DNA of 48,617 nucleotides from the UHGV virus genome UHGV-1497260, one strand, 5' to 3'. The notes under the pieces are model-generated. The model had not been told where the DNA came from and made no database searches. It was given only the letters and a program-made list of their open reading frames with translations. The stretch is from a virus. Below are positions 267 to 48,617 of this stretch, piece by piece (the stretch's first letter is position 1; each line of letters opens with the position of its first letter). Made by a program: the position numbers and the translations under genes.

Positions 267-956
267 ATGCTTGAAAACAGAAAACAAATTCAGAAAGAAA
301 TTTACTTACCAATAGCAACATATTGTTTAAAAGATAAGCAATATTATATAAAAGAATATGGAGCACTATTAATAAAGAGTGCTGAAAATAGTGACATTTT
401 TAATACCCATAAAAATAGAATTTTGTATAAGAATAAACTTGATATTCAAGAAATAGCAAATGAACTGAATGTAAATAAAGCAACAATCCAAAGAAATATA
501 AAAAAACTAGAGAAGTTAGATTTTAAAATTCTAAAAATAGAAAATACCCTAAATGGAATTGTATATTGTTTGCCGTCAGAAAATAATATTGATTTAAACA
601 AATTTGCATTGATAAATTATGAAATGCTTAAAAAAATAGTCAATAAATTTAAATCAAATACAATAAAAGTATATTTTTTACTTAAAACAATCACTACAGA
701 AACTAATTTTAAACCTGCAACTAATAGTTTTATAGCAGAAAATATAGGACTAAGTTCTAAAAGTAAAAATAATTTAGATATCATAACTTCTTCTGTTAAA
801 ACTTTAGAAGAAAATAAATACATTGAAACAAAAAAAGTAAATGTATATGAATATGACAAAGAAAAACTTAGAGAAGTTCCAAAAATAAGAAAAGTTTATC
901 GGATTTGTAATTTTGATGAGTGGAAAAAGGAAATTGATAAAAATAAAGTTTATTAA
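267..956 (+). CDS. DNA-binding protein with two tandem winged-helix/HTH-like segments; possible replication or regulatory protein next to the origin
   Basis: HTH-like segment IQEIANELNVNKATIQRNIKKLEKL and a second similar segment in the C-terminal half; sits between the iterons and the BlaI-like gene. Confidence 0.4.
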   Translation: MLENRKQIQKEIYLPIATYCLKDKQYYIKEYGALLIKSAENSDIFNTHKNRILYKNKLDIQEIANELNVNKATIQRNIKKLEKLDFKILKIENTLNGIVYCLPSENNIDLNKFALINYEMLKKIVNKFKSNTIKVYFLLKTITTETNFKPATNSFIAENIGLSSKSKNNLDIITSSVKTLEENKYIETKKVNVYEYDKEKLREVPKIRKVYRICNFDEWKKEIDKNKVY

Positions 957-2255: not shown

Positions 2256-2624
2256 CTATTTGTTTTTCTTTTGCAATAATTCTATCATTTTCAAGATAGC
2301 ATCTCTATCTTCTTGTTCTAATTCATAAAGTTTGTTAGTTATTTCTTTTACATCATCATCAATTTCTAAGTCAGCTAAACAATCTTTATAAATTTCACCT
2401 TTTCCACTTCTTAGCCATTCCTCATTTACTTCAAATTCTCTGCATATGTCGTTAATACTTCTTTCTGTCAAAACTCTTTTTCCTTTTTCCAATAAAGAAA
2501 TTTGATCTTGTGATAAGAAAATTCTTTCCCCAAACGCTCTCTGCGAAAGTCTTTCAAGAGTTCTTAACTCATTTAATCTTTTTCCAATTTCTTTAGCTTT
2601 TAATTCTTTTGAAACTTCTGCCAT
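2256..2624 (-). CDS. XRE-family HTH repressor (CI-like), copy 1
   Basis: HTH segment LSQRAFGERIFLSQDQISLLEKGKR; paralogue of 3258-3632 (ICREFEVNEEWL vs ICREFNVNEQWL); divergent from a small plus-strand gene. Confidence 0.85.
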   Translation of the reverse strand: MAEVSKELKAKEIGKRLNELRTLERLSQRAFGERIFLSQDQISLLEKGKRVLTERSINDICREFEVNEEWLRSGKGEIYKDCLADLEIDDDVKEITNKLYELEQEDRDAILKMIELLQKKNK

Positions 2625-2957: not shown

Positions 2958-2988
2958 CAACAGTAAATACTTAAGGGGAGTGATAAGC

Positions 2989-3696
2989 TTGAAAATTTCA
3001 GATTTTAATAAAGATCATATAGGTAAAGCGATTCAACTACAAGAGACAAGATTTAATGTCATAACGGATTGCATCATCACAGAAGTAGAAGTAGGCGAAA
3101 TTGTTGTAATGTTTTACATGCAAGAAAATGATGACACAGGATACAAGGCTATAACATGGGAAGATTTAAAAAATTATATCATAAATGGCAAAGGGAAGAG
3201 GCATTATAGGATTTTTGTGGCTTGGGGGATTGTTATAAAAAGAGGTATAACCTCTTTTTATAACTCTTCATTTTTGATTTTTAGATATGCATTGTCAATT
3301 ATTTTTTCTATCGCTTCTCTATCTTCATCTTCCAATGCAAATATCTTTTTTATCATAGTTTTTATTTCTTCACTAGTTTCTAAATCTTCTGTAATGTCAA
3401 CGAACATTTCACCTTCTCCATGCAATAACCATTGTTCATTTACATTAAATTCTCTACAAATATCATTTATGGTTCTTTGTGGTATCTTTCTATGCCCTGT
3501 TTCATATGAAGAGATTTGCGAAAGAGACAAACCTAATTTTTTGCCAAAATCTTTTTGTTTTAATTTCTTTGAAAGCCTTATATCTTTAAGTCGTTGTCTT
3601 CTTTCATTATCTTCTAAGTTTTGTTTTTCCATAACGTCACCCCTTATGAGTATAATTATAACATTTAAAAATACGCTTTGCAATTACAAATTTTAA
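2989..3696 (+). CDS. small conserved phage protein P1 (paralogue of 3966-4172); N-terminal ~85 aa supported, 3-prime end uncertain because the frame stays open across the antisense of XRE2
   Basis: IGKAIQLQETRFNVITDCIITEVEVGEIVVMFYMQE aligns with IGTAVQLQDIRFDTKVDCIITKVEKNEILVMYYEKE of the 3966 ORF; TTG start with AAGGGGAG ribosome-binding site as in the paralogue; segment KNYIINGKGKRHYRIFVAWG resembles the C-terminus of the 4201 initiator. Confidence 0.4.
   Translation: MKISDFNKDHIGKAIQLQETRFNVITDCIITEVEVGEIVVMFYMQENDDTGYKAITWEDLKNYIINGKGKRHYRIFVAWGIVIKRGITSFYNSSFLIFRYALSIIFSIASLSSSSNANIFFIIVFISSLVSKSSVMSTNISPSPCNNHCSFTLNSLQISFMVLCGIFLCPVSYEEICERDKPNFLPKSFCFNFFESLISLSRCLLSLSSKFCFSITSPLMSIIITFKNTLCNYKF
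3258..3632 (-). CDS. XRE-family HTH repressor (CI-like), copy 2
   Basis: HTH segment LKQKDFGKKLGLSLSQISSYETGHRKIP; start MEKQ with AAGGGGTGA ribosome-binding site; paralogue of 2256-2624. Confidence 0.85.
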   Translation of the reverse strand: MEKQNLEDNERRQRLKDIRLSKKLKQKDFGKKLGLSLSQISSYETGHRKIPQRTINDICREFNVNEQWLLHGEGEMFVDITEDLETSEEIKTMIKKIFALEDEDREAIEKIIDNAYLKIKNEEL

Positions 3697-3770
3697 AAAA
3701 ATACGCAAAATAAAATAAAAACTCAAAGCGTATTGACATAGTATGCAAAGCGTAATATAATTGAATCACA
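3690..3770. promoter_or_regulatory. operator/promoter region of switch 2: CAAAGCGTA words at three sites overlapping a consensus TTGACA-17-TATAAT promoter
   Basis: ATACGCTTTGCAA, CAAAGCGTATTGACA and GCAAAGCGTAATATAAT read directly; one operator word lies in the promoter spacer. Confidence 0.65.
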
Positions 3771-3785
3771 GGAAGGAGTGTTAGA

Positions 3786-3962
3786 ATGAATCAAGAAAAA
3801 GAAAAAGCGAATGATTTGTTATTAAAACTTGAACTTCTTAAAAAGATAAACCCACAAGAGTTTGGATACATAAGCGGAAGAATAGACGTAAATATTGAGA
3901 AGTTAAAACAAGAAACCGAAAGAAATAAAAGCAAAAAAATAAGATATAGGAAGGGGGCTTAA
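3786..3962 (+). CDS. small Cro-position protein (58 aa) divergent from XRE repressor 2
   Basis: ribosome-binding site AGGAAGGAG; sits downstream of the consensus promoter. Confidence 0.45.
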   Translation: MNQEKEKANDLLLKLELLKKINPQEFGYISGRIDVNIEKLKQETERNKSKKIRYRKGA

Positions 3963-3965
3963 AAA

Positions 3966-4172
3966 TTGACTTTTAATAAAAATCAAATAGGAACAGCAGT
4001 TCAATTACAAGATATAAGGTTTGATACAAAAGTTGATTGCATCATTACAAAAGTAGAAAAGAATGAAATACTAGTCATGTATTATGAAAAAGAAACAGAG
4101 GAAATAGCATATAAAACTTTGACTAAAGAGGATCTAATACTTGATGATTACAAACTTAAGTTATTATATTAA
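3966..4172 (+). CDS. small conserved phage protein P2 (68 aa), paralogue of the 2989 ORF N-terminus
   Basis: TTG start with GGAAGGGGG ribosome-binding site; paralogy read directly. Confidence 0.5.
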   Translation: MTFNKNQIGTAVQLQDIRFDTKVDCIITKVEKNEILVMYYEKETEEIAYKTLTKEDLILDDYKLKLLY

Positions 4173-4200
4173 AAAGTAATTTCGGAAGGGAGGTGATTAA

Positions 4201-4920
4201 ATGGATCTTTTGAAAGATGCAAGAAAAAAAGAATGGTTTTGGCTGGAAAATGATTTGGTGGATAGAGAGGATCTAAGTGTTTACGAAAAAATGGCTTATA
4301 TGGTAATGGCAAGATATTCAGATGATGAAAGTTCTTGTTTCCCAAGTTTATCATTAATATCCAAGAAAATGGGATGCGGAATAACGACTGTCAAAAAAAC
4401 AATAAATAGTTTAGAAGAAAAAAATTTAATAATAAAAGTACATCGCAAGGTTAAAAACAAAAAGGAAAATGATACAAATGTTTATTACATTATGAGTTTG
4501 AAAGGTAAGTCGTCTGGCGACATAGGTCATGAGGCGACAGACGGTAGGTCGCCATACGACCAACAGGTAGGTCGCGAGGCGACTAGTAAAAAGACTTATA
4601 ATAAAAAGACTTATATAAAAAGTAATACCACTACACAAAAAGAATCTAAAACTTATTTAGACCTATCATTTTTAGATTTAGATATAGAAAAAGTAAAACT
4701 AACTAAAGATGAATATGACAAACTTATAAGCAAGTTTGGAAAGAAATACATACATGATAAAATTGTTAGTTTAGAAAACTATATCGTAAATGGTAAAGGG
4801 AGTAGATATAAGAGTCATTACAGAGCTTTGTTGACTTGGGGGAATGGAGATGCTAGTAAAGGTATAGTACCAGAAGTTACAAAGACTAAGAATCCTCTTA
4901 GTGGATTTAAAGAACTTTAA
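4201..4920 (+). CDS. phage replication initiator / replisome organizer (DnaD-like, N-terminal winged-helix)
   Basis: segment WFWLENDLVDREDLSVYEKMAYMVMARYSDDESSCFPSLSLISKKMGCGITTVKKTINSLEEKNLI is typical of firmicute phage initiator N-termini; C-terminal NYIVNGKG..ALLTWG motif; immediately upstream of the helicase. Confidence 0.65.
   Translation: MDLLKDARKKEWFWLENDLVDREDLSVYEKMAYMVMARYSDDESSCFPSLSLISKKMGCGITTVKKTINSLEEKNLIIKVHRKVKNKKENDTNVYYIMSLKGKSSGDIGHEATDGRSPYDQQVGREATSKKTYNKKTYIKSNTTTQKESKTYLDLSFLDLDIEKVKLTKDEYDKLISKFGKKYIHDKIVSLENYIVNGKGSRYKSHYRALLTWGNGDASKGIVPEVTKTKNPLSGFKEL
4505..4586. repeat. GC-rich island of direct and inverted repeats inside the initiator gene (GGTAGGTCGC x2, GAGGCGAC x2, GGCGAC/GTCGCC inverted); candidate phage origin
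   Basis: roughly 60% GC in a ~28% GC genome; repeats read directly; analogous to the lambda origin lying inside its O gene. Confidence 0.55.
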
Positions 4921-4947
4921 AAACTAAATAGTAAGGAGGTAGATAGG

Positions 4948-5133
4948 ATGAATGAAAAAGAAGAGACTGTTTATTTGAATAGTTCTAATGTGAAGTTATT
5001 CTTAGGTGTTAGGGATATTAAGGAATTTGAGGAATTGATAGAAAATGTCAATGAGCGAATTTGTCAACTCCAAGAATCGATTAATAAACTTGCCCAATTT
5101 AATATTGAGTTCGAGATTAAGTCAGATATTTAG
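4948..5133 (+). CDS. hypothetical protein
   Basis: ORF with AAGGAGG ribosome-binding site. Confidence 0.4.
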   Translation: MNEKEETVYLNSSNVKLFLGVRDIKEFEELIENVNERICQLQESINKLAQFNIEFEIKSDI

Positions 5134-5159
5134 TTAAGTATAAATTAGGAGGATTGTTT

Positions 5160-5378
5160 ATGGCAGATAAAACTGTAGAACTTACTGAAAAGGATTTGCA
5201 CTGCATTGCAAGGCATTTGCAAAATGAAGTGTTAGAGATAGCATTTAGAGGAAACAGAGAAGCCCCTACATCTTGTGAAGTTTGCGATTACTTCGAAGAA
5301 TGCAAGGACTATTTCACCCATATAGACACTTTTATAAAATTAAGTGAAATGACAGGTGTAGATATTTTTACTAAATAA
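5160..5378 (+). CDS. small conserved protein A1 of the duplicated cassette (unknown function)
   Basis: about 80% identical over the first 50 aa to A2 at 5772-6032 (ELTEKDLHCIARHLQNEVLEIAFRGNREAPTSCEVCDY); AGGAGG ribosome-binding site. Confidence 0.55.
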   Translation: MADKTVELTEKDLHCIARHLQNEVLEIAFRGNREAPTSCEVCDYFEECKDYFTHIDTFIKLSEMTGVDIFTK

Positions 5379-5396
5379 ATTTAGTAAATTAAAATT

Positions 5397-5603
5397 TTAG
5401 TATTGTAATTGACGTGCTTTTTTAAAAAGAGGACAGTTGCTATTAGCAGTCATTATTTGAATTTTGCAAATGTAATTTTTATTACATTCGCACTCTAAAA
5501 GTTTTGATCCAGCGAATCCAGGAAAAGTTTTATATTCACCAGAAAATTCAACTTTATCGTCAATAAGAGAGCATTTTTCTCTTAAGGTTTTAATTTTGCA
5601 CAT
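5397..5603 (-). CDS. small Cys-rich protein B1 of the duplicated cassette (unknown function)
   Basis: paralogue of B2 (PGFAGSKLLECEC vs PGTFGSKLMSTRC, shared CP[LI]xKK); GGGTGGTG ribosome-binding site; convergent with A1. Confidence 0.5.
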   Translation of the reverse strand: MCKIKTLREKCSLIDDKVEFSGEYKTFPGFAGSKLLECECNKNYICKIQIMTANSNCPLFKKARQLQY

Positions 5604-5617
5604 ATTCATCACCACCC

Positions 5618-5662: not shown

Positions 5663-5771
5663 ACATGCAAATTATCATGGTGTAGAATTAAAGCATAGGT
5701 CAATTAAATTTAGTTATAAAATCAATGAAACAGATAAATAATTAAATGTTAAATAAATTAGGGGGTTGTTC

Positions 5772-6032
5772 ATGAAAGAGGAAAAGTTAGAACTTACTGA
5801 AAAAGAATTGCATTGTATTGCAAGACATTTGCAAAATGAAGTTATGGAGATGGTATTTAGAGGGAATAGAGAAGCCCCCACATCATGTGAAGTTTGCGAT
5901 TACCTGCAAGAATGTGAGGGAGATTTTACCTGTATGTATCATTCTTTTACTAAATTAAGCAAAATAACAGGTGTAAAAGTGACTGCATTTAAGTATTGTT
6001 TTCCAGATGAAAATCCCAAAGCTACTATCTAA
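5772..6032 (+). CDS. small conserved protein A2 (paralogue of A1)
   Basis: paralogy read directly; GGGGG ribosome-binding site. Confidence 0.55.
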   Translation: MKEEKLELTEKELHCIARHLQNEVMEMVFRGNREAPTSCEVCDYLQECEGDFTCMYHSFTKLSKITGVKVTAFKYCFPDENPKATI

Positions 6033-6213
6033 GAAGTTTTTTTAGAATAGGACATTCTTCATTAGAAGAAGAGTCGCAAATATGACTTCCATCACATCTA
6101 GTTGACATTAACTTAGATCCAAAAGTACCTGGAGGAGCTGAATATTCGCAAGTAAGAGAAATGGTTTCGTTTATTACAGGACATTCTTTGCTTATAACTC
6201 GATATTGGCTCAT
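6025..6213 (-). CDS. small Cys-rich protein B2 (paralogue of B1)
   Basis: AAGTGGTGAGAG ribosome-binding site; 3-prime end overlaps A2 by 8 bp (convergent). Confidence 0.5.
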   Translation of the reverse strand: MSQYRVISKECPVINETISLTCEYSAPPGTFGSKLMSTRCDGSHICDSSSNEECPILKKLLR

Positions 6214-6689: not shown

Positions 6690-8018
6690 ATGAATTACTC
6701 TTTAGAAGCAGAGCAAAACATTCTAGGAAGTTTTCTTATAAATGACTCTATAGGTTACAAAATAAGGGAATTAAAAGAAAATGATTTCTACTTTGAGTCA
6801 CATAAAATTATTTTATCTTGTATGAAGAGAATAATTGACTCAAATAAACCTTTAGATCTTTTGCTTTTAAAAAATGAACTAGAAAAAATAGATAGATTAG
6901 TAGACGTTGGAGGAGTTAGTTACATTACCAGTTTAACAACTATAGTCATAACTACTTCAAACATAGATCACTATATAAAAATCATAAAAGAGAAGTTACT
7001 TAAAAGACAAATTTCAGAGTTAGCAAATGAATTAATTAATAATTCAAATTCAGATAAAAGTATAGACGAATTGATTGTAGATATAAACGATTTAAAAGCA
7101 CTTGTGACGACGAGCAGTAGTGTAAATGATAATTACATTGATGCGTCAAAAATAAAGCGTGAAAAAGGCGTACACAAGTCCATAGACACAGGTTTTAATA
7201 AACTAAACAATATGCTAGATGGATTTAGATATGGAACTCTTACAATTTTGACTGGTAAACCTGCGTCTGGTAAATCAACTATAGTTAACCAGTTTATAGC
7301 ACAAGCAATTACGAATGGAGAAAAAGCATTTTTGTATTCTGGAGAATTACCCTCTTTCATGGCTATGGATTGGTTTAGAAAAACTGTAGCTAATGATTAT
7401 CACATAAAAGAATATAAAAGTGTCTATGGAGGAACATACACAGATATTCCAGATTATGCCTCTGAACTTATTTCAGACTGGATAAAAGATAAATTTTTTC
7501 TCTATGACGAAGATGCAATAAGTGATGAAGTAAATCTACTAAATACCATAGAGCATTTATATTTAAAAAAAGGGGTTAGGTTCTTTGTTCTTGACAATCT
7601 AATGACAATAAAAACTGGCAAGGCAGATAAATATGAGAGACAAGAGCAGATAGTAAGCAACTTAAAAAACCTTGCTAAAAAATATAACTTAGTAATAGTT
7701 TTAGTTGCACATCCTCGTAAAAATATGGGTGACATGAAGCCAACTATGTATGATGTGTCTGGAGCAAGTGAGATTGTTAATTATGCAGATTATATTTTAT
7801 CAACATACAGGGTTATTGACGAAGAAGAAGAAACAGACGACACTTATCTATTAATTTTAAAAAATAGAATAACAGGAAAACAGAATATAAGTTTTAAAAT
7901 GAATTTTTCAGAAAGAAGAAAAAGACTTTACACGACTAGTGAGGAGTTAAACAGAGATTACAAATATGATGTAAATAAACAATATGTTCAAGTAGAAATT
8001 CCAGAAGATGTATTTTAA
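6690..8018 (+). CDS. replicative DNA helicase, DnaB-like
   Basis: N-terminal DnaB-type segment EAEQNILGSFLIND; Walker A GKPASGKST; hexameric-helicase-like C-terminal region. Confidence 0.8.
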   Translation: MNYSLEAEQNILGSFLINDSIGYKIRELKENDFYFESHKIILSCMKRIIDSNKPLDLLLLKNELEKIDRLVDVGGVSYITSLTTIVITTSNIDHYIKIIKEKLLKRQISELANELINNSNSDKSIDELIVDINDLKALVTTSSSVNDNYIDASKIKREKGVHKSIDTGFNKLNNMLDGFRYGTLTILTGKPASGKSTIVNQFIAQAITNGEKAFLYSGELPSFMAMDWFRKTVANDYHIKEYKSVYGGTYTDIPDYASELISDWIKDKFFLYDEDAISDEVNLLNTIEHLYLKKGVRFFVLDNLMTIKTGKADKYERQEQIVSNLKNLAKKYNLVIVLVAHPRKNMGDMKPTMYDVSGASEIVNYADYILSTYRVIDEEEETDDTYLLILKNRITGKQNISFKMNFSERRKRLYTTSEELNRDYKYDVNKQYVQVEIPEDVF

Positions 8019-9770: not shown

Positions 9771-10144
9771 ATAATGTAGTTTTAGTTGGAAGATTAGCAA
9801 GAGATCCAGAATTAAGATATATACCAGAGTATGGTACTCCAGTTGCTACTTTTGCATTGGCAGTTGATAGGGGTTATACAAAAAAGGATGGAACTAGAGA
9901 AGTCGATTTTATACCAATTGAAGTTATGGGAGGATCCGCAGAATTTTGTGCTAATTATCTCGCAAAAGGAAGAATGGTTTCAATTCAAGGCCAAATAAGG
10001 ATAGAAAAATATGAAAAAGATGGAGAGAAAAAAACTTTCACAAAAGTAAGAACAAAAATTGTTAATGCGCTTGATCACAAGCCAAAGGATGAAGAAAAAG
10101 AAATTAGTTTTCAAGTTTTAGATGATGAAGATATTCCATTTTAA
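9767..10144 (+). CDS. ssb: single-stranded DNA-binding protein
   Basis: N-terminal NNVVLVGRLARDPELRY OB-fold signature and acidic C-terminal tail DDEDIPF. Confidence 0.9.
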   Translation: MNNVVLVGRLARDPELRYIPEYGTPVATFALAVDRGYTKKDGTREVDFIPIEVMGGSAEFCANYLAKGRMVSIQGQIRIEKYEKDGEKKTFTKVRTKIVNALDHKPKDEEKEISFQVLDDEDIPF

Positions 10145-10706
10145 ATTGGATGGTGATTATGTGAGAAGTTTAGAGGAGAGAAATAAATTATTTGAAGATA
10201 ATATAAATCTTGTACATTTTATTATAAATAGATATTTCAAATCCTTTTTAAGAAGGTATCCATATTTAAAAGAAGATTTATTTCAAGAAGGATATATAGG
10301 ATTATATAAAACAACATGTTGCTTTGATGAAAGTAAAGGAAAATTTTCTACAATAGCATTTTCGTATATATCAGGACATTTGAAAAGATTTACGACTGGA
10401 TATGTTAAGAAACATTATAGAAATGATATAGATAGTTTTGAAAAGTGTATTTATAGAGATAATTATGGAGAAGAGATAAGAATAGAAGATAGATTGGCTG
10501 GCAATGAAAATGTAGATATAGAAAATGTTCGTGTTATTAGATCTTGTATAAAAAGAAGTGAGATAAAAGATATACAGAAAATAGTTTGTCTAAGAGAAAA
10601 AGGTTATACTCAACAAGAAATAAGTAAAGTGCTTGGAACTAGCCAAACGTCAATATATAGGAGACTTAAAAAATTAAAAACTGAAATTAATATACTAGGT
10701 AAATAA
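10122..10706 (+). CDS. sigma-70 family RNA polymerase sigma factor (ECF/TcdR-like, regions 2 and 4)
   Basis: region 2-like segment DLFQEGYIGLYKTTCCFDESKGKFSTIAFSYISGHLKRF; region 4 HTH GYTQQEISKVLGTSQTSIYRRLKKLK; true start may be the internal GTG near 10161. Confidence 0.7.
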   Translation: MMKIFHFKLDGDYVRSLEERNKLFEDNINLVHFIINRYFKSFLRRYPYLKEDLFQEGYIGLYKTTCCFDESKGKFSTIAFSYISGHLKRFTTGYVKKHYRNDIDSFEKCIYRDNYGEEIRIEDRLAGNENVDIENVRVIRSCIKRSEIKDIQKIVCLREKGYTQQEISKVLGTSQTSIYRRLKKLKTEINILGK

Positions 10707-10734
10707 TAAATGATTTAAGTTTATTGGAGGTAAA

Positions 10735-10893
10735 ATGAAAACTAAAATAATTGGTGGTAGGGAAAATGAGTGTCCAATTTGTAATGGTAATATATTTAAG
10801 ATTGAAACATTAATTGGAATAGTGTGGCAATGTAAGGATTGTGGATGTATGTATCAAGATATGAGTTCTAAAGAAAGTAAAAGGGGGTATTAA
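10735..10893 (+). CDS. small zinc-ribbon protein (52 aa; CPICNG...CKDCGC)
   Basis: two CxxC pairs; GGAGG ribosome-binding site. Confidence 0.45.
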   Translation: MKTKIIGGRENECPICNGNIFKIETLIGIVWQCKDCGCMYQDMSSKESKRGY

Positions 10894-10895
10894 AG

Positions 10896-11222
10896 ATGAG
10901 TTGTGTTATAAAGTGTGATTTTTGTGGTGAAACAATAGCAGAAATTCTAAACATAAAGGTATTCAGAATTGATGATGAAGGTAATATAATGAGTATCGGA
11001 AAAGATGTATGTGGCAAATGTTATGACAGATTATTTGGAAGTAACTTGAATAAGAAGATGACTAATTATGAAAAGATAAAAAATATGAGCAAAATAGAAA
11101 TGGCTGAATTTCTTGCAAATGGCGGAAGTGGATGTACTAGTTGTGCTTATGATTTTCAAGAATGCTTAGGCGGATGTTTAGAAGGTAGAAAAAAATGGCT
11201 TGAAAGTGAGGCGATGAAATAA
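10896..11222 (+). CDS. Cys-rich hypothetical protein (N-terminal CxxC...CxxC zinc ribbon, C-terminal CTSC...C...GGC)
   Basis: sequence reading. Confidence 0.45.
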   Translation: MSCVIKCDFCGETIAEILNIKVFRIDDEGNIMSIGKDVCGKCYDRLFGSNLNKKMTNYEKIKNMSKIEMAEFLANGGSGCTSCAYDFQECLGGCLEGRKKWLESEAMK

Positions 11223-11758
11223 TGAAAAAGACGTTAATAATCGTAGGAGTAGTTATTTCAATATTAATTATGTTTGCTTGCTTGTTCTTAGTAACTAAAA
11301 ATAAAGCAATTGATTTAGAAGAGCAGGTCCAATCAGCAACTGCATCTGTAGAGGTGCAAGAAAAAAGGAGAATTGATTTAATTAAGAACATAGTAGACTG
11401 CGTAAAAGACTATGCTAAATATGAAAATAGGACATTAAAAGAAGTAACTGACATGAGAGTAAGTGCAAATGATGAATCTATCAAGGAAGCAAAATTAAAT
11501 ATACAAGCAGTAGCAGAGAAGTACCCAGATTTAAAAGCTAATGAAAATTATAAGCAACTAATGAGTGAGTTGAGTATAACAGAAAATATGATTGCACAAC
11601 ATAGAGAAAATTATAATATGCAAGTTCGCAATTACAATAAATATATAAGAAAATTTCCAGCAAATTTAATTCTAAATAGTATGGGATATGAAAAAATAGA
11701 ATCTAAATATACTGAATATAAAGCAAAAGAGGATGCACCTCAAAATTTATTTGATTAA
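11222..11758 (+). CDS. LemA-family membrane protein
   Basis: N-terminal transmembrane segment followed by the LemA-type segment EVQEKRRIDLIKNIVDCVKDYAKYENRTLKEVTDMR. Confidence 0.6.
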   Translation: MKKTLIIVGVVISILIMFACLFLVTKNKAIDLEEQVQSATASVEVQEKRRIDLIKNIVDCVKDYAKYENRTLKEVTDMRVSANDESIKEAKLNIQAVAEKYPDLKANENYKQLMSELSITENMIAQHRENYNMQVRNYNKYIRKFPANLILNSMGYEKIESKYTEYKAKEDAPQNLFD

Positions 11759-11769
11759 GAGGTGCACAT

Positions 11770-12576
11770 ATGAAATTTAAAACTTTTGAAATAACTAAGA
11801 GAGAATTTTTAGTGAGCATAATAATTGCTTGCATGATGATTGTGCTTGGATTTTTCATTGATGATAAAGTTCAATCAAAATTTTTAGAAGATAATGAAAG
11901 ATATTACAAAGCAACTAAAATAAATAATGACAAAGATCTCTTTGATTATGCTATGGAAACAAGTGCGGGAGATTCTTTGATAAGTGGAAGATTTAAAAGT
12001 GTAGATTCTGTATCTATAGAAGAATTAAAAGGGGACTATTGGTTTATAGAAAGAACGGAAGAAAAATACACTATGCATACTAGAGTGGTTACCACTAAAG
12101 ACAGTAAAGGCCATTCACATAAATATACTGAAACATATTGGACTTGGGATTACCATGATTCAATAGAGAAAAAATGTAATAAATTTAATTTCATGGGTAA
12201 AGAGTTTGATGCGAAAGTAATTACTAATTTATCTAAAGAGAGATTGGCATTAAAGAAAGATATATTTAAAAATAATAATCTTAAAATAAAAGGTAATTAT
12301 GCTTACATTAATAATAAGAGAAGGTACTATTATGAAGTTATACCGAAAGAATTTAATGGTACCATGTATGCTAATTTAAAAAATAATACTATAGCGAATC
12401 CAGCTGATAAAAACATAAAAGTTTTTAAGGGTGAGTCTATACAGAATGTTTTAGAAAATAATAATTTTAATACAGGGTTTTTTAAAGTAGTGTTTTGGAT
12501 CATCTGGATATTAATAACTACAATCATTATATATGTATTTTATTATTTAAAAAATGATTGGCTTGAAGATAAATAA
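11770..12576 (+). CDS. membrane protein with N- and C-terminal transmembrane helices (LemA partner)
   Basis: hydrophobic segments near residues 14-30 and 238-260; adjacent to LemA. Confidence 0.45.
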   Translation: MKFKTFEITKREFLVSIIIACMMIVLGFFIDDKVQSKFLEDNERYYKATKINNDKDLFDYAMETSAGDSLISGRFKSVDSVSIEELKGDYWFIERTEEKYTMHTRVVTTKDSKGHSHKYTETYWTWDYHDSIEKKCNKFNFMGKEFDAKVITNLSKERLALKKDIFKNNNLKIKGNYAYINNKRRYYYEVIPKEFNGTMYANLKNNTIANPADKNIKVFKGESIQNVLENNNFNTGFFKVVFWIIWILITTIIIYVFYYLKNDWLEDK

Positions 12577-12600
12577 AGATGTAAGAGGAGAAGATCAGGT

Positions 12601-12861
12601 ATGAAATGTAAGGTGTACCATGCTATTAAAAATATAAAAGATGCAAATGAGTTAATTGATAGATTTGAAACAGAAAATATATTCTTTGAATTAAATGACA
12701 TAGATAATGAAAATGTCTTAAATGGAGAAATGGATTTAACTGATATAGAAGATATTGCATCATTGCAATTTATATTAGATGGAGATTTATTTATATTTAG
12801 TAGTTGTGATGAAATGATATTTATGAATAAATACACTCAAAAAGAGTTGGGACTTCAATAA
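12601..12861 (+). CDS. acidic hypothetical protein
   Basis: ORF only. Confidence 0.35.
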   Translation: MKCKVYHAIKNIKDANELIDRFETENIFFELNDIDNENVLNGEMDLTDIEDIASLQFILDGDLFIFSSCDEMIFMNKYTQKELGLQ

Positions 12862-12884
12862 ATGAATGAGGGGAGATACTAAAG

Positions 12885-13370
12885 ATGGATTTAAAGTTAA
12901 TTAGCAGTATACCTAATTGGAAGGTAGAAGATCAGTTGGCAAAAATTGATGAAGAGGTAACTGAGTTTAAAAATGCTATAGATACAGGAATAACTAAAGA
13001 TATAATTGCAGAAGGATTAGATGTTTGTCAAACTATTTTAACAATGTTTCAAGTTTTAGAAATAGAAAACTATATTACTGAAGGAGTAGAGACACATAAT
13101 AAGAAACTAAATGGAAGAGGATGGGATCTCAAAGAAATAGGAGACGATATACTTAATTTAATTAAAAATTCAATGATTAATGAATTGATTAATATGAACA
13201 AGAAATTAAAATGCCTTGATGAAAAAGAATTTAATGCAAAAATACAATTTTTAGATGTAGATAAACTATGGAATTTGTGCATGCCTTTAGTTAACTTAAG
13301 TACTATAAAAGGAGTTAATGAAAGCATTGATGAAATGAAAATGGGAGAGTTTCTAAAAAATATTAATTAA
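12885..13370 (+). CDS. MazG-like nucleotide pyrophosphohydrolase (putative)
   Basis: segment KIDEEVTEFKNAIDTG...IAEGLDVCQTIL resembles the MazG EExxE...ElgD motifs. Confidence 0.45.
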   Translation: MDLKLISSIPNWKVEDQLAKIDEEVTEFKNAIDTGITKDIIAEGLDVCQTILTMFQVLEIENYITEGVETHNKKLNGRGWDLKEIGDDILNLIKNSMINELINMNKKLKCLDEKEFNAKIQFLDVDKLWNLCMPLVNLSTIKGVNESIDEMKMGEFLKNIN

Positions 13371-13389
13371 AGTAAGGAGATAATATAAT

Positions 13390-13647
13390 ATGTTGATAGA
13401 AGTAACTGAAAATAATAGAGAATTAAAAGTAGGAGATATTGTTGAAATTAATGGTGGTAATAAGTTATATATGATTCTTTCTTTAAAGGAAACAATAGGT
13501 GGGTATGTTATTATAAATATGCAGAATGGATATGGTTCATTTGGTGCTTATAAAAGTTTAAGTCAACTAGAATTAGACTTGAAGGTAAGAGGTTATAAAT
13601 TATATAGTTCTGATGATTACAAGTTGCAATTAGTGCCTAGAGAATAA
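13390..13647 (+). CDS. hypothetical protein
   Basis: AAGGAG ribosome-binding site. Confidence 0.4.
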   Translation: MLIEVTENNRELKVGDIVEINGGNKLYMILSLKETIGGYVIINMQNGYGSFGAYKSLSQLELDLKVRGYKLYSSDDYKLQLVPRE

Positions 13648-13756
13648 GATATATTTCAAAAAAGAAAAAAAAGGAGCATTACTTCACGCTCCTGCTTGTC
13701 AAAATTCTAAAACCGTCATCACAACATCATTATAACATAATTAGGAGTGTGAGGTA

Positions 13757-14200
13757 ATGCAATCTAGCAAAAAAGACAATTTGTTTAGTAGTGCAGAAGG
13801 TAAGTTATATAATTATAAAAAAATAAAAGCGGAAATAGAAAAAATAGACATTGATATGCAGATGATAAAAAACGACTACAGAGGATGTAGTGGAGTTGAA
13901 ATTAAAGAAAAGACAAGCAAGACATATGATATTAAAAGTGTAATTGAAATAGAGACTGAAGAAAAAGAAAAGAAAATTGCCTTAAAAGAAAAAGAGAAGA
14001 GACATAAAGAGTTGATAATAGAAAAAATAGATAATGCAATGAAAATATTAAGTGAAGAAGAAAAAAAGATAGTACAGTATAAATACTTTTCAAGTAGCAG
14101 GACATCTTGGGAATATGTTGGCAGAATGATTGGTTTTTCAGCGAGTAAGTGTAAGCAAATGAGGTTTGATATTATAGATAAGATAAAAGGATTGCTATAA
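13757..14200 (+). CDS. phage late-gene transcriptional activator, ArpU/RinA-like
   Basis: C-terminal sigma-region-4-like segment EEEKKIVQYKYF...SWEYVGRMIGFSASKCKQMRFDIIDKI; located just before the packaging module. Confidence 0.6.
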   Translation: MQSSKKDNLFSSAEGKLYNYKKIKAEIEKIDIDMQMIKNDYRGCSGVEIKEKTSKTYDIKSVIEIETEEKEKKIALKEKEKRHKELIIEKIDNAMKILSEEEKKIVQYKYFSSSRTSWEYVGRMIGFSASKCKQMRFDIIDKIKGLL

Positions 14201-14296
14201 AAATGTCCGATTTGTGACGATTTTAAACCGATTTATGTCTGTTTTGTGTCTAAAAAATGTCCGATTTGTGACCAATTTATGTCTGTTTTGTGTCTT
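14201..14296. repeat. two tandem ~45-bp direct repeats AAATGTCCGATTTGTGAC..ATTTATGTCTGTTTTGTGTCT (copy 1 has a 9-nt insertion)
   Basis: sequence reading; sits between the ArpU-like gene and the late operon. Confidence 0.8.
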
Positions 14297-14342
14297 TTAA
14301 TCATGATAAGATTGTATTGTGAGAAAAATATATTTAATAAAA

Positions 14343-14888
14343 ATGGCTTGGAATTTACGTTCTAAGTCTTTTTTATTGTCTAGAGAGGTGTTGAAGATTA
14401 AACGTGATATAACAGAAGAAATTTCAAGTGCTGCATATGTACCAGACAATCTAAAGTATTACGACAATGTAATGAAAGAAACTCCTGGTATGTATGGAAG
14501 AGAATGTTCTTTAGATTTTATAAAGAAAAAGCAAGAAAAACTCTTGAAACTAAAAAAGAAGGTTAAGAAAAATTATGATTCTAATATTAATAAGATAGAC
14601 TCATATCTAAAAATTTTAGAGGAAAGTATAATTGATGAGTCTGATCACGTTGAGTTGGTTGTCTTTAAATTATATTTGCAGTTAGAAAATGTTGTAAAAG
14701 TAACTGAAACTGTAAATGACTTAGGATTTAGAATAAAGACCAATACTTATGCAAGAGAAAGAAAATATAGTACAAATGATATAACCTCTATAATCACAGA
14801 TCCTTTTGCTAATGTAGTTGAAGACTTAAAAATATTGGTGCAAGATAGGCAAAGAAAAAATTATCATGGTAATAAGGAGTGTTTTTAA
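14343..14888 (+). CDS. hypothetical protein
   Basis: ORF; alternative start at 14319. Confidence 0.4.
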   Translation: MAWNLRSKSFLLSREVLKIKRDITEEISSAAYVPDNLKYYDNVMKETPGMYGRECSLDFIKKKQEKLLKLKKKVKKNYDSNINKIDSYLKILEESIIDESDHVELVVFKLYLQLENVVKVTETVNDLGFRIKTNTYARERKYSTNDITSIITDPFANVVEDLKILVQDRQRKNYHGNKECF

Positions 14889-14891
14889 TGA

Positions 14892-15536
14892 ATGGAAGCA
14901 CATAGTGGACAAAAAGTTAATCCAATAAAAGATATAGAGGATGTATTTAGACTCTTGAATTTTCTAGAGGAATGGAACGAAAGAAATTACTTATTAGCTC
15001 TATTTGGAATGTGTACTGGGCTTAGGATAGGGGATATATTAGCACTTAAAGTTGCAGATGTAACAGATGTAAAGTTAGATAAAAAAGGGAAGAAGATAAG
15101 AGTATCTAAGGATTGGATTAGAGTTATAGAAGAAAAAAGAGACTATGATAGAGAAGTTTTCTTATCTGATGTAATAAAGAGTGCTATAGAAAACTATACT
15201 CAAGATAAACCAGGAGAAGAGTTTTTATTTAAAAGTGGCAAGAGGAAGAAATTTAATAGGCCTATCCAAACAAGGCAAGCAGGAAGAATAATAAAAGGAG
15301 CAGCAGAAAAGGTAGGAATAAAAGAAAATGTTGCAACACACTCTTTAAGAAAGACATTTGCAAGACATATTTATGATGAAGAAGAAAATAAGACTTATGC
15401 ATTAGAACTTATAAGGAAGATTCTAGGACATAAGACAATAGAAATGACTAGAAGATATATAGGAATAGATAAGGATGAAGAAGTAAAAGCAATAACTAAA
15501 TTTACTAATAAGTTAAAGAAAAGAAAAAGAAATTAA
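14892..15536 (+). CDS. tyrosine site-specific recombinase, catalytic domain only (214 aa)
   Basis: segments LFGMCTGLRIGDILALKVADV, HSLRKTFARHIY and LGHKTIEMTRRYI carry the R..H-x-x-R..Y catalytic signature; no N-terminal core-binding domain. Confidence 0.75.
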   Translation: MEAHSGQKVNPIKDIEDVFRLLNFLEEWNERNYLLALFGMCTGLRIGDILALKVADVTDVKLDKKGKKIRVSKDWIRVIEEKRDYDREVFLSDVIKSAIENYTQDKPGEEFLFKSGKRKKFNRPIQTRQAGRIIKGAAEKVGIKENVATHSLRKTFARHIYDEEENKTYALELIRKILGHKTIEMTRRYIGIDKDEEVKAITKFTNKLKKRKRN

Positions 15537-15750
15537 AATATCTTGTATTTTATCTAAAATTTAATATGTTACGTTTTTCAACAACAGGACATTATTAGAA
15601 TGTAAAGAGCCTCAATAATAGAATTTCCAAAGAATAGGATAGATTTATTAAAATGTCTGAAAATATATATTAAAGGTCATTTATTCAAGGGATTTATAGG
15701 GATGTAAATATTTAAATGTTTATTTAGAAGCTGAGTAAAGAGGTGATTAA

Positions 15751-18707: not shown

Positions 18708-18710
18708 GAT

Positions 18711-42843: not shown

Positions 42844-43749
42844 TTATTTCATCATTTTTTTGTATCCTTTTGCATTTGCAAAAACATGTTTATCTACATC
42901 ACTCATAACTATTATGCCAGGTATATTCTTTTTAAATGCTTCACCTAACAATTTAGCACCTCCACCCATAACAACAACCGCAGCTGTACTAACTGGATAA
43001 TTTAATTTCAATTCATTGTATATTTCTTTAAATAGAGAAATAGATGCATCTATATTTTTCTTTATATCTTGTTTTTCACCATTTAGGTAAAATCCTTTAT
43101 TTATGTAGTCTTGTATTTTTTCTCTTTTTATCTCAACTTTACCTAAAAATCTTTCGTCCATCTCAAGAGATTTCTTTATTGCATCATATATATTTATTGT
43201 TCCCACATTTATAGAATATGGATTAGTTGCTTTATTTCCTTGTACAAGTGCAATATCTGTTGTCTTTCCACCAATATCAACTAAAACAACATCTCTTCCT
43301 GCAACTTGGTCAACTATATCTTTTGCATAATATAAATAGCCTGTAACGCCCTCTGGGAACACTTGAACAGATCTTATTACTATATCTCTTTTAGTAGTTT
43401 CATTTCCTTTTGCAAATTCAACATGATATTCTTTTCCTTGTAATTTTTCAATCAAATCTTTTCTTAATCCTCCAAATTGCTTCACTGGTAGACCTAATGC
43501 TAGATCAATAACTTCATCATCTGTATTTCTGCATATAGCCCCAAGTAAAAGCGGTAAGAAGTTTTCTTTCTCATATTTAACTATATTTATTTCTTCGTCA
43601 CCTTCGCCTAAATAATATGTTTTATTACCTATTTTAATGCTATCTGAATCTGAACCAAAGTTTTTTACCTCTGTAACTTTACTTTCAAAAATATCATCTG
43701 TACTTGTTTTAACTGCATAATTTCCAATATCTATACCTAATTTACTCAT
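42844..43749 (-). CDS. parM: ParM/Alp-family actin-like segregation ATPase
   Basis: N-terminal MSKLGIDIGNYAVK phosphate-1 motif; actin-fold motifs DIGGKTTD and VVMGGGA; paired with a small upstream gene. Confidence 0.75.
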   Translation of the reverse strand: MSKLGIDIGNYAVKTSTDDIFESKVTEVKNFGSDSDSIKIGNKTYYLGEGDEEINIVKYEKENFLPLLLGAICRNTDDEVIDLALGLPVKQFGGLRKDLIEKLQGKEYHVEFAKGNETTKRDIVIRSVQVFPEGVTGYLYYAKDIVDQVAGRDVVLVDIGGKTTDIALVQGNKATNPYSINVGTINIYDAIKKSLEMDERFLGKVEIKREKIQDYINKGFYLNGEKQDIKKNIDASISLFKEIYNELKLNYPVSTAAVVVMGGGAKLLGEAFKKNIPGIIVMSDVDKHVFANAKGYKKMMK

Positions 43750-45680: not shown

Positions 45681-46415
45681 TTAAGAATTTGCATTACAAT
45701 AATCAGAAAGCTTGTCCCACTCACAATCAACCCCTATTATTTTAAGAATATCATTGACTTGGCTATTTAAATCTTTAATATCTGATTTAGACATTAAAGG
45801 ATCTTTCATTATTTCATTTAGAAAAATACTATCAATGATTAAACATACATTTTCTGATATATATTCACGTTTTACTGAGATTGCTGTTCCAACTACACTT
45901 TCTTTTAATGTCTTGTATGCTACACTCATTATACATGGTTCTAACTCAATTCCTTCTAGTGTTATTTCAAAAGAATATCTTATTTTTATATTTTCATTTC
46001 CAATAAATATTTCTTCATTGCTGCTTATCTTCTTTAATTTTCTCATTATGCCTAACATCTTAGCATTCACTTCATAATTTATTCCATATCTCTTTGATGC
46101 CAAACTCGACATTAAGTCTCTTTCTAAATAAATTACCCACTGACCATTATAGGAAAATGATGTTTTAGCGATATCCATTTCTCCTTTTCCAGTAATATTA
46201 AATTTAGGCTCTAGTTTATTTATTAAGTAAATCTCATAAAAATCCATAGTATATTTATTATCTAATTCCATATACTCAAGTCTTAAATTCTTATTACACC
46301 AATTTTCTTTTTTATTACTTAAATGACTAGCGTGTCTATCACAGATATTCTCTGTTTTCCCAACGTATAAACATTCTTCCGTATCTTGATTAATATATTT
46401 ATAAACATAATACAT
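45681..46415 (-). CDS. GIY-YIG nuclease-domain protein, copy 2
   Basis: N-terminal YVYKYI...LYVGKTEN...RH..H...FYEIYLINKLEPKFN carries the GIY, YIG, Arg and Glu motifs; divergent C-terminus. Confidence 0.75.
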   Translation of the reverse strand: MYYVYKYINQDTEECLYVGKTENICDRHASHLSNKKENWCNKNLRLEYMELDNKYTMDFYEIYLINKLEPKFNITGKGEMDIAKTSFSYNGQWVIYLERDLMSSLASKRYGINYEVNAKMLGIMRKLKKISSNEEIFIGNENIKIRYSFEITLEGIELEPCIMSVAYKTLKESVVGTAISVKREYISENVCLIIDSIFLNEIMKDPLMSKSDIKDLNSQVNDILKIIGVDCEWDKLSDYCNANS

Positions 46416-46434: not shown

Positions 46435-47235
46435 TTAATTGTCATATTTACAGCCCTTATATATTTCAAATAATTCTTGCCATGTATATCCAACTTCTAG
46501 TATGTGAAAAATATCCTCTATTTGTTGGAAAATCTCAGTAATTTTATATTCAAATGTTGGCATTAATTCCATTAAATTAGCCAAAGATCCAATCCTAATC
46601 TCTAATGTTATATTTATAAGTATTTTTTTATTTGTTGCTGTATATTCTTTCCATCTGGGATAAACTGAAATCAAAGAACAACTTCCAAATCTTTCTAATG
46701 TTTCAAAATCATATGATATCAAATTAATATCTAATTCATTCTCACAAAATTCTATATCCATATTTTCAAAGTTATATAGCACACTTAAAACATTATTTTC
46801 ATATAACATTTCAACCTTGGCATCTAACTTTTCAATTCTCTTTAAAAAATTAATAGATTTTTTACTTACTTCATATTTCATATCTATCTTTCTTTCTCTG
46901 AATCTTCTTTTTCCCTTTGTCTTTTCCTTAAAATCTTCTTCTGAATATGTACTCCAATCTTCTTCCTTGTAATCAAAAAAGATGTGTTCAGTATCCATAT
47001 CACCTTTACTTAGTTTATTAAATATTGGATTTAGTTCATTTATTAAATAAACTTCAAAAAAATCCATATTATATCTACGTGGAAGTTCAATATATTTTAA
47101 TATTAATTCTTTAGTACACCAATCTTCTTCTTTATTACTCAAATGAGATGAATGCCTTGCATATATATCTTCTGTTTTTCCAACGTATAAACATTCTTCT
47201 GTAGCTGGATCAATATATTTATAAACATAATACAT
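46435..47235 (-). CDS. GIY-YIG nuclease-domain protein, copy 1
   Basis: same motifs (YVYKYI, LYVGKTED, FEVYLINELNPIFN); first ~100 nt and the ribosome-binding-site region nearly identical to copy 2. Confidence 0.75.
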   Translation of the reverse strand: MYYVYKYIDPATEECLYVGKTEDIYARHSSHLSNKEEDWCTKELILKYIELPRRYNMDFFEVYLINELNPIFNKLSKGDMDTEHIFFDYKEEDWSTYSEEDFKEKTKGKRRFRERKIDMKYEVSKKSINFLKRIEKLDAKVEMLYENNVLSVLYNFENMDIEFCENELDINLISYDFETLERFGSCSLISVYPRWKEYTATNKKILINITLEIRIGSLANLMELMPTFEYKITEIFQQIEDIFHILEVGYTWQELFEIYKGCKYDN

Positions 47236-48506: not shown

Positions 48507-48617
48507 GCTCACCTTTGACCCTTAAAATGATGACCTTTGACCCTTAAAATGATGACCTTTGACCCTTAAAATGATGACCTTTCGACCCTTAAAATGATGA
48601 CCTTTGACCCTTAAAAT
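48507..48617. repeat. iteron array: one degenerate plus four 22/23-bp copies of GATGACCTTTGACCCTTAAAAT
   Basis: copies at 48529-48550, 48551-48572, 48573-48595 (one inserted C) and 48596-48617; degenerate copy at 48507-48528. Confidence 0.9.

Follow-up and report, generated by a model that had tools for sequence, protein, structure and literature searches.

Gene organization and the GC-rich array

The DNA analysed here is the viral genome UHGV-1497260 from the UHGV collection, whose whole stretch of 48,617 nucleotides (nt) is referred to as the window. It has a G+C content of 28.5% and behaves like one complete circular element, whose first 20 kb are 97-98% identical to circular Clostridioides difficile plasmids, including pCDBI1 as well as the 45-kb plasmid of strain ATCC 9689 = DSM 1296. 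The subject of this analysis is the replication initiator gene located in the early operon of this element. Within this gene, the DNA that encodes the linker between the two domains of the initiator carries four GC-rich dyads, immediately followed by an AT-rich tandem repeat (Table 1).

Table 1. Features of the initiator locus and of the two replication regions of the window, with coordinates, strand and basis of assignment
Feature	Position	Strand	Basis or remarks
Sigma-70-type promoter TTGACA-17-TATAAT (predicted function)	3733..3761	+	12/12 consensus match
Initiator gene, 239 amino acids (aa)	4201..4920	+	HTH_36 winged-helix N-domain, predicted disordered linker, small helical C-domain
Winged-helix DNA-binding N-domain coding region, aa 1-100	4201..4500	+	Pfam, alignment, AlphaFold2
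Iteron array/GC-rich island, four dyad sites	4503..4583	.	Repeat search, Tandem Repeats Finder, pattern scan
Dyad 1, GTCG-TCTGG-CGAC (GTCGTCTGGCGAC)	4509..4521	.	Pattern scan
Dyad 2, GTCA-TGAGG-CGAC, imperfect left arm	4526..4538	.	Pattern scan
Dyad 3, GTCG-CCATA-CGAC, core oppositely oriented; with flanks GGTCG...CGACC	4548..4560	.	Pattern scan
Dyad 4, GTCG-CGAGG-CGAC	4571..4583	.	Pattern scan
AT-rich 15-nt tandem (TAAAAAGACTTATAA x2.5)	about 4584..4625 (repeat 4587-4622)	.	Repeat search, Tandem Repeats Finder
C-terminal three-helix domain coding region, aa 156-220	4666..4860	+	AlphaFold2 block means 69-84 over aa 161-220
DnaB-family replicative helicase, same early operon	6690..8018	+	Pfam DnaB 1e-24, DnaB_C 5e-21
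Rep_3-family plasmid initiator	47255..48442	-	Pfam Rep3_N 1.3e-14, Rep3_C 9.3e-15
22-base-pair (bp) iterons (ACCTTTGACCCTTAAAATGATG)	48511..48617, continuing at 1-54 over the circular junction	.	Plasmid-type origin, next to Rep_3

The island at 4505-4586 contains 58.5% G+C, which is the highest value among all 82-nt stretches of the 48.6 kb and the only one of at least 50%; the initiator gene as a whole has 31.4% G+C and, without the island, 27.9%. A repeat search resolved four imperfect 19-nt direct repeats in the array with a spacing of 17, 22 and 23, and Tandem Repeats Finder reported a 23-nt period. The repeat unit is a 13-bp dyad, GTCR-N5-CGAC, composed of palindromic arms and an asymmetric 5-nt core, and the centres of the successive dyads are 17, 22 and 23 bp apart. 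Scanning the whole window on both strands revealed four such sites inside 75 nt as compared to 0.09 expected, and a single stray match elsewhere at 17993; this match, as well as matches to TAGGTCR and AAAAAGACTTAT elsewhere in the window, is at chance level and was discarded. The motifs GGTAGGTCGC (at 4543 and 4566), GAGGCGAC (4531 and 4576), GGCGAC (4516, 4533 and 4578) and GTCGCC (4548) have no other copies in the window. Repeated 8-mers cover 70 of the 90 nt of the densest patch; 100 codon-shuffled versions of the gene averaged 30 and never exceeded 56. The AT-rich tandem directly abuts dyad 4, with 19% G+C over 4584-4640, and constitutes a candidate DNA-unwinding element.

The first-pass annotation, made from the sequence of the window, had pointed out the GC-rich island within the initiator gene, the duplicated GGTAGGTCGC and GAGGCGAC, the GGCGAC/GTCGCC pairs and the linker peptide GHEATDGRSPYDQQVGREAT, and all of these were found as described, with the motifs unique to the island and the repeat-encoded peptide corresponding to aa 109-128. 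The presence of repeats was also correctly recognized, but their unit is a dyad and not just a direct repeat, and the outline of the island was right but omitted the adjoining AT-rich tandem. The designation of the gene product as DnaD-like turned out to be loose, since the significant Pfam match is to HTH_36.

Other approaches used for locating an origin were less informative. One-mismatch DnaA boxes number 12 as compared to 16 expected, with none near the island, and dependence on host DnaA at this site was hence dropped due to the lack of DnaA-box enrichment. The extremes of the cumulative GC skew, at 2703 and 41791, track the switch in gene orientation, rendering it uninformative as an origin locator. 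No second, oriR-like copy of the dyad array was found in the window by the pattern scan.

Domain structure of the initiator

The only family memberships supported by the sequence of the initiator are Pfam HTH_36 (PF13730; aa 24-77, 54.4 bits against a cut-off of 25, E 1.1e-14) and PHROG 270, annotated as replication initiation protein (E 2.7e-32 over aa 1-232). DnaD_N (PF21984) reached 15.5 bits, which is below the cut-off of 27 and does not allow assignment to DnaD, and PHROG 186, a DnaD-like helicase loader family, matches the N-terminal part only (1.5e-12). Pfam searches gave no match to DnaB_2/DDBH2 (PF07261), to RepA_N (PF06970) or to the Phg_2220_C domain, and Phage_rep_O is absent from the matches at E <= 0.1, hence the protein is not placed among RepA_N, SPP1 gp38-like or lambda O initiators; it does match PHROG families designated O-like (phrog_391, 3e-11).

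The AlphaFold2 model, for which 19 aligned sequences were used, has a mean predicted local distance difference test (pLDDT) score of 57.9. In this model, the winged-helix domain (aa 12-100) and the three-helix C-domain (aa 156-220) are of moderate to good quality, with 10-residue block means mostly between 59 and 89 and dips to about 51 near aa 81-90, and aa 101-155 have a pLDDT of about 25 and are predicted to form a disordered linker. Since aa 103-128 are encoded by the dyads and aa 129-141 by the AT-rich tandem, both elements lie inside this predicted linker. When the model was searched with Foldseek, the top four PDB matches were N-terminal domains of RepA_N initiators from staphylococcal plasmids (5kbj, 4pql, 4pt7 and 4pta), albeit weak with E of 5e-3 to 1e-2 and a template modelling (TM) score of about 0.44, and MarR-type winged helices score nearly level with them. 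The putative recognition-helix segment of the N-domain is GCGITTVKKTINS. The C-domain matches PHROG 13246, annotated as replisome organizer (5e-9), and is presumed to recruit the replisome or the helicase.

Conservation of the DNA architecture among homologues

A near-identity search with 3700-5400 of the window against the phage collection returned nothing, and relatives were reached via protein and plasmid searches. The comparative set comprises 53 distinct homologous genes with their DNA, from phages and plasmids of Clostridioides, Clostridium and the Bacillus cereus group, drawn from phage records, IMG/VR contigs, one GTDB genome, PLSDB plasmids and contigs encoding specific protein variants. 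When each gene was examined for the 90-nt stretch richest in 8-mer repeats, direct or inverted, this stretch began 2-100 nt past the last strand of the winged-helix domain in 52 of the 53; in the remaining one, a chimeric gene, the peak lies in a second cassette. The arms of the repeated sites differ between types: GGTCR-N5-CGACC in the window (type A), TAGGTCA-TGATG-TGACCTA in phiSemix9P1, GTTAGGCA-TGAGG-TGCCTAAC in type B, GTGCA-TGAGG-TGCAC in type C, GGTATATCA-CGAGA-TGATATACC in type D, GTGACA-N4-TGTCAC in a Clostridium group and direct repeats of about 21 nt in B. cereus-group phages. With a 9-nt offset allowed for, the dyad centres of types A, B and C coincide in their gene coordinates, and hence these arrays are positional homologues with diverged arms. 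An AT-rich tandem, either AAAAAGACTTATAAT-like or AACAATACTAAT-like, follows every array in all relatives examined. The encoded linker peptides are unrelated between types, as exemplified by GKSSGDIGHEAT, KVQNEVPNVRHEVP, GGEYDAQQVVNMMH, SRDDIPIAPDDKGV and SVSQKLVVSEGNHG.

Several further architectures were encountered among the homologues. Proteins P0068, P0070, P0076 and P0079 carry an unrelated N-domain (MRFNVHGF..., no Pfam match) on the same C-terminal domain, and these fusions have their own peptide and DNA repeats and their own tandem (KDYSIKDYSI), so that the grammar is the same and the DNA-binding module another. Two or three cassettes, each of iterons plus AT-rich tandem, are combined in tandem in the chimeric initiator genes of L016 (3001-3915), L017 (3001-3942) and L081 (691-1713), and multi-cassette chimeric proteins also include P0056, P0066 and P0068. 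The downstream arrays in such chimeras retain only about 10 residues of the former winged-helix domain and are thus orphan arrays.

Outside this set, an exact scan for the type-A array in viral contigs retrieved only the relative already known. A degenerate two-dyad pattern matched 98 metagenome contigs, which are mostly high-GC and unrelated and hence uninformative on this element. Unrelated metagenome contigs, among them L141 (2394-2560), L118 (986-1069) and L092 (275-355), contain AGGTCG-N5-CGAC arrays with a 22-23-nt period, and at least these three arrays have stops in all three forward frames. Successive copies in L141 differ by inversion of the core (GCTGAGC/GCTCAGC), and the unit GGTAGGTCGCCACACGAC of L118 is one mismatch away from dyad 3 of the window, with an A-rich tandem following it.

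Replacement of the dyads together with the DNA-binding domain

In plasmids that are 97-98% identical to the window over 20 kb, the initiator gene is just about 80% identical: its C-domain and AT-rich tandem are almost unchanged, and the N-domain and the dyads have been replaced together. At least five such cassette types are found on near-identical C. difficile phage-plasmid backbones. Plasmid pCd10_2 is 98.5% identical to the window in the initiator region and 99.4% identical over nt 10059-20000. The conserved AT-rich tandem marks the junction of cassette exchange.

Covariation was measured in 26 single-cassette genes by comparing strand-symmetric 7-mers of the array with domain identity. Sharing of 7-mers correlates with N-domain identity (rho 0.64; 0 of 2000 Mantel permutations), amounting to 0.88 at N-domain identities of at least 90% and to 0.02 below 60%. 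Pairs with the same C-domain and different N-domains share 6.5% of 7-mers, as compared to 46% for pairs with different C-domains and similar N-domains. As read from the alignment and the sequences, the putative recognition-helix segment that follows a conserved GC(G/S) motif varies with the arms: GITTVKKT accompanies GTCG/CGAC, SIRQVSN accompanies GGCA/TGCC, SERQAK accompanies TGCA/TGCAC and SINT(A/V)RK accompanies TATCA/TGATA.

Two host genomes in IMG/VR, 2938525410 (L008 and L032) and 2879510609 (L013 and L034), each contain two related elements, and in both hosts the two initiators differ in N-domain and iteron type. With n=2, this fits selection against shared replication specificity in co-resident elements.

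Separation of DNA from peptide constraint

A number of close comparisons distinguish changes in the DNA sites from changes in the peptide. In relative L083, the exact reverse complement of dyad 1 of the window is present at the same gene position, converting the peptide KSSGD to RSPDD. Within the first 480 nt of the gene, L006 and L009 are distinguished by six nt, five of which make up the 5-nt core of one dyad, such that a 21-nt site is turned into its exact reverse complement and the peptide HEV becomes HLM. In pCDBI1, the inter-dyad segment CACAACAGGTAGTG is changed into its reverse complement via four substitutions, with AQQVV becoming ALPVV. The arms of the 65% identical type-A relative L084 are identical to those of the window at 28 of 32 positions and the cores at 9 of 20 (Fisher p = 0.0016), and the third codon positions of the N-domain are identical at 53 of 95. 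Copy number shifts by 45 nt, which equals two sites (22 + 23 bp) and exactly 15 codons, and thus both the helical phase and the reading frame are kept; examples include six dyads in L085/P0001, two in L083/P0071 and one to four 15-aa units in type D. Taken together, these sequence patterns suggest that the DNA repeats and not the linker peptide are under constraint.

A probable lytic origin and the alternatives

A layout of four dyads spaced about two helical turns apart plus an AT-rich tandem, set within an inter-domain linker, is also that of experimentally mapped origins (lambda O, SPP1 gene 38 and the pSK41 rep gene), and this leads to the reading that the island and the tandem are the phage-type (lytic) theta origin of the element, placed inside its initiator gene. 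We consider this the most likely reading and hold it with fairly good confidence; that the dyads are the cognate binding sites of the N-domain is put forward with somewhat more confidence still. As in known origins located within initiator genes, the sites lie between the DNA-binding domain and the C-domain, about four dyads are about two helical turns apart, and covariation occurs without peptide conservation. The embedded origin would hence be an unannotated member of a classical kind of origin, and its annotation in this family would be new. An embedded origin had been proposed in the first-pass annotation, with homologues keeping the amino-acid linker and not the nucleotide repeats named as the pattern that would speak against it. 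The homologues display the reverse, since the linker peptide is not conserved and the DNA repeat cluster at that position is kept in all, so the proposal gains support from comparative evidence, with origin activity itself deduced from sequence.

As a mechanism, dimers of the N-domain would bind the four GTCR-N5-CGAC dyads. With half-sites about one helical turn and sites about two turns apart, the dimers would be placed roughly on one face of the DNA and may form a bent nucleoprotein complex, upon which the adjacent AT-rich tandem at 4584-4625 would be destabilized and open. The C-domain would then recruit the DnaB-type helicase and the host replisome, and transcription from the promoter at 3733-3761 would pass through the site. 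The array encodes the disordered inter-domain linker, the sequence of which would be free to track that of the DNA. In this scheme, all functional steps, from binding and unwinding to recruitment of the helicase and origin activity, are predicted.

Some observations weigh against such an origin. The 19% G+C of the tandem is unexceptional in a genome of 28.5% G+C, with some intergenic stretches being lower. The initiator resembles RepA_N N-domains in structure only weakly (E about 5e-3, TM about 0.44). The C-domain has no informative homologue in Pfam, NCBIfam and PDB sequence searches, with all Foldseek matches on the N-domain, and no helicase loader was recognized, the comparison with SPP1 gp39 being not significant. 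Single-unit proteins exist in the databases (P0039 and P0064), which may represent defective genes or collapsed assemblies. Because the N-domain and the array are neighbours, linkage contributes to the covariation signal, and part of it could reflect a breakpoint preferred at the AT-rich tandem. Finally, the array has considerable potential for RNA structure, with 4495-4595 folding at -38.5 kcal/mol (z = -5.6).

This folding could point to a function in the mRNA, such as translational pausing between domains or transcript stability, and strong folding is also seen in type B, type D and IEBH, a homologue from the B. cereus group (z -4.7 to -5.1). Stable folding is, however, not conserved, given a z of +0.14 for type C on a near-identical backbone and of -1.6 to -1.8 for two members each from the B. 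cereus group and Clostridium; furthermore, all units of an element have a common arm sequence, which an RNA stem does not need, and their copy number ranges from 1 to 6. Any array of repeated dyads must fold as RNA, and hence the folding is judged a by-product and a role in the mRNA is given very little credence. It is also highly improbable, and largely refuted, that the region matters only as a repetitive flexible protein linker whose DNA repeats are a by-product of peptide repeats or of replication slippage. The region is indeed in-frame and translated in every homologue and predicted to be disordered, and such repeats readily arise by tandem duplication, but from type to type the DNA architecture persists with linker peptides that are unrelated, and the peptide has been rewritten by exact dyad inversions. 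Moreover, the arms are better conserved than the cores and the third codon positions, the sites are palindromic, a property meaningless at the peptide level, and the equivalent linker of pSK41 is dispensable for protein function.

A site used solely for recombination, be it a junction, a hotspot or the target of a site-specific recombinase, that marks module exchange with no role in replication, would accommodate the break in initiator homology at this position, the chimeric genes with 2-3 cassettes and the tyrosine recombinases of the element known from annotations of relatives. Yet the shared breakpoint is the conserved AT-rich tandem, the GC-rich dyads differ between types and covary with the DNA-binding domain of the initiator itself, and the same layout in the lytic phage SPP1 is a mapped origin, leaving this explanation with scarcely any probability. 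In plasmid systems, iterons have both initiation and control roles. The dyads could thus be real N-domain sites that serve control alone, as an autoregulatory roadblock or in titration, handcuffing or incompatibility, with the lytic origin located elsewhere; all evidence for binding fits this equally well, and the cassette diversity on near-identical backbones resembles incompatibility-driven diversification. Against this, the element contains no further cluster of such repeats, and initiation is favoured by the conserved AT-rich tandem immediately beside the dyads as well as by the resemblance to the mapped origins of lambda O, SPP1 gene 38 and pSK41 rep. Control and origin roles are, besides, not mutually exclusive, and a purely regulatory array is regarded as unlikely.

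The element as a probable two-replicon phage-plasmid

Besides the initiator-embedded origin favoured here, the window has the attributes of an iteron plasmid. About seven copies of the 22-nt iteron extend over 48511-48617 and 1-54, about 70 bp upstream of the start of the Rep_3 gene, and this gene encodes an initiator of the WH1-WH2 kind, such that the window ends hold what defines a Rep_3 iteron-plasmid replicon, an initiator with adjoining tandem iterons of about 22 bp. Given that the iterons wrap around the window ends beside the Rep_3 gene, the window represents an entire circular element equipped with a theta origin of the plasmid type. Rep_3 and its iterons form the plasmid-maintenance origin, separate from the proposed initiator-embedded one, and thus the element would have two replicons, like the phage-plasmid P1, in line with the suggestion of the first-pass annotation that the embedded origin would be the second one besides the iterons. 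The iterons are followed at 95-144 by an AT-rich 10-nt repeat (TAAAAACTAT x4.9). Next to them, at 267..956(+), lies the gene for a 229-aa winged-helix protein (HTH_11 6e-7, weak HTH_36 8e-6), which may regulate the plasmid replicon.

The predicted promoter upstream of the initiator gene is divergent from a repressor gene at 3258..3683(-) and, judged from its consensus match and the layout of open reading frames (ORFs), would drive the early operon through the initiator gene. The helicase gene is located 1.8 kb downstream of the initiator gene in the same orientation, and its product is 21% identical to SPP1 gp40 (E 2e-15). From about 8 to 42 kb, the majority of large ORFs share the + strand orientation, and in near-identical plasmids this region is annotated with a portal protein and further phage genes. 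A ParM/Alp-type actin gene is present at 42844..43749(-); AT-rich 10- and 20-nt tandem repeats at 43988-44132, about 250-400 bp upstream of it and past a small ORF, are a candidate partition centromere. Active extrachromosomal prophages, that is phage-plasmids, have been reported among this group of C. difficile plasmids (PMC10993401).

Several parts of the element are duplicated. The immunity and early region contains two cI-like repressors, at 2256..2624(-) and 3258..3683(-), with 52 of 119 residues identical, and two copies of a 68-aa early protein (2980-3250 and 3966..4172; 30/55 identical), the second of which forms part of a long fused ORF that is probably spurious. A convergent two-gene module occurs twice in the interval from the initiator to the helicase gene, as 5154..5378(+)/5397..5615(-) and 5766..6032(+)/6025..6213(-), encoding a small Cys-containing protein (48/72 identical between copies) and, on the opposite strand, a small Cys-rich protein (19/62). 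GIY-YIG-domain paralogues (95/255 identical) lie side by side at 45681..46415(-) and 46435..47235(-), between the partition and Rep_3 genes. An intergenic 22-nt tandem repeat, ATGTCTGTTTTGTGTCTAAAAA x2.8, is found at 14235-14295, ahead of the gene at 14319.

Implications

No paper was found in the literature that describes an origin for these C. difficile extrachromosomal prophages. The present analysis provides a precise lytic-origin candidate for this widespread and inducible prophage family, comprising the four dyads at 4509-4583 and the AT-rich tandem to about 4625, and suggests a P1-like two-replicon logic in a Firmicute phage-plasmid, in which Rep_3 and its iterons would serve maintenance and the initiator-embedded origin would serve lytic growth. 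The type-specific arms, dyad flips, 45-nt steps and cassette swaps amount to a natural experiment in the co-evolution of a winged helix and its sites within a coding sequence. Cassette types should predict compatibility or interference among co-resident elements, and the origin fragment could serve in C. difficile vectors or in phage resistance based on origin decoys, as used in lactococci. For annotation, HTH_36 proteins listed as helix-turn-helix domain-containing proteins can be called initiators with an internal origin when this repeat grammar is present.

A more speculative proposal, which we regard as doubtful, is that cassettes of N-domain plus iterons represent orthogonal replication specificities kept diverse by conflict between co-resident elements, with orphan arrays as a decoy or hitch-hiking device or as titrators, and with dyad inversions varying the linker cheaply. 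If true, orphan arrays might let an element be replicated by the initiator of a competitor, or titrate that initiator, and short dyad inversions would provide cheap variation of the linker peptide with the binding sites untouched. The window, with its single type-A cassette, would then be one allele of such a system.

Comparison with known systems

In lambda, the origin has four sites with internal dyad symmetry, and the N-terminal domain and the iterons diverge together among lambdoid phages. The window differs from lambda in its Gram-positive host, in a different C-domain and system of helicase delivery, in the presence of a second, plasmid-type replicon and in the absence of a Phage_rep_O match. 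The likeness to the O genes of lambda and Stx phages includes the placement of the gene downstream of the repressor and promoter region as part of an early operon, and in these phages iterons and an AT-rich tract lie in the middle of gene O, where the iteron number alters the length of O, with six instead of four iterons adding 13 residues (PMC7466680).

SPP1 is a Firmicute phage with an origin within the initiator gene, as proposed for the window, and like the window it has a gene for a DnaB-family helicase downstream (PMC6316719). Its oriL inside gene 38 comprises directly repeated sequences plus a DNA-unwinding element rich in A and T, and is bound by gp38; in vitro reconstitution of SPP1 replication has been achieved (PMC6316719). 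The sequence of SPP1 places these repeats, together with an AT-rich tandem of 9 nt, between the N-domain and the Phg_2220_C domain, and the latter is the C-domain of gp38 and also of the window-protein relatives phiSemix9P1, phiCD6356, P0071 and P0074; the B. cereus-group homologue IEBH contains DnaB_2. The window protein has no significant sequence similarity to gp38, and SPP1 gp38 and gp39 were rejected as sequence homologues, the link consisting of the shared architecture and the Phg_2220_C domain of relatives. The two systems also differ in that gp38 gives no HTH_36 match and the window protein lacks Phg_2220_C, and in that the window has no recognized gp39-like loader and no oriR-like second array.

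In the staphylococcal plasmid pSK41, the winged-helix N-domain of Rep binds four Rep boxes located centrally in rep, the linker encoded by the origin is dispensable and the C-domain binds DnaG (PMC5703833). In pPR9 (GU237136), whose backbone is otherwise identical, a phage-like N-domain of the pfam13730 (HTH_36) family has taken the place of about 500 bp comprising N-domain and origin, and the hybrid mini-replicon replicates autonomously and is compatible with pSK41 (PMC5703833). The pPR9 N-domain hence belongs to the same family as that of the window. A similar arrangement is present in the RepA_N rep gene of pUSA03 (L088), where four 23-bp semi-palindromic boxes (509-595) are followed by three 15-nt AT-rich tandems (601-650), matching the window array in the period and order of boxes and tandems. 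Although a review cites pUSA03 as a hybrid-initiator plasmid, its record encodes a plain RepA_N Rep (RepA_N match 2.5e-32), and it was retained as a comparison of the pSK41 type and not as a hybrid. BLASTP of the window protein against pUSA03 Rep was not significant, and tblastn of the N-domain against plasmids gave no staphylococcal matches. In contrast to pSK41, the dyad cores of the window contain G/C (TGAGG-like) and are not poly-A, and its initiator gene belongs to a phage early operon with its own DnaB helicase and not to a plasmid rep locus, with an unrelated C-domain (no Bac_RepA_C) and no RepA_N domain.

Phage P1 has a plasmid origin, oriR, with RepA iterons, and a lytic origin, oriL, inside repL. 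The window differs from P1 in host, initiator folds and partition system, which is of the ParM type in the window, and no homology to RepL was detected. What the two have in common is the combination, on one element, of an iteron/Rep origin for maintenance with a separate initiator-embedded lytic origin, the latter being a proposed one in the window. An analogy with P1 has also been drawn for the Bacillus phage-plasmid B83, which has RepA and ParM (PMC6669507).

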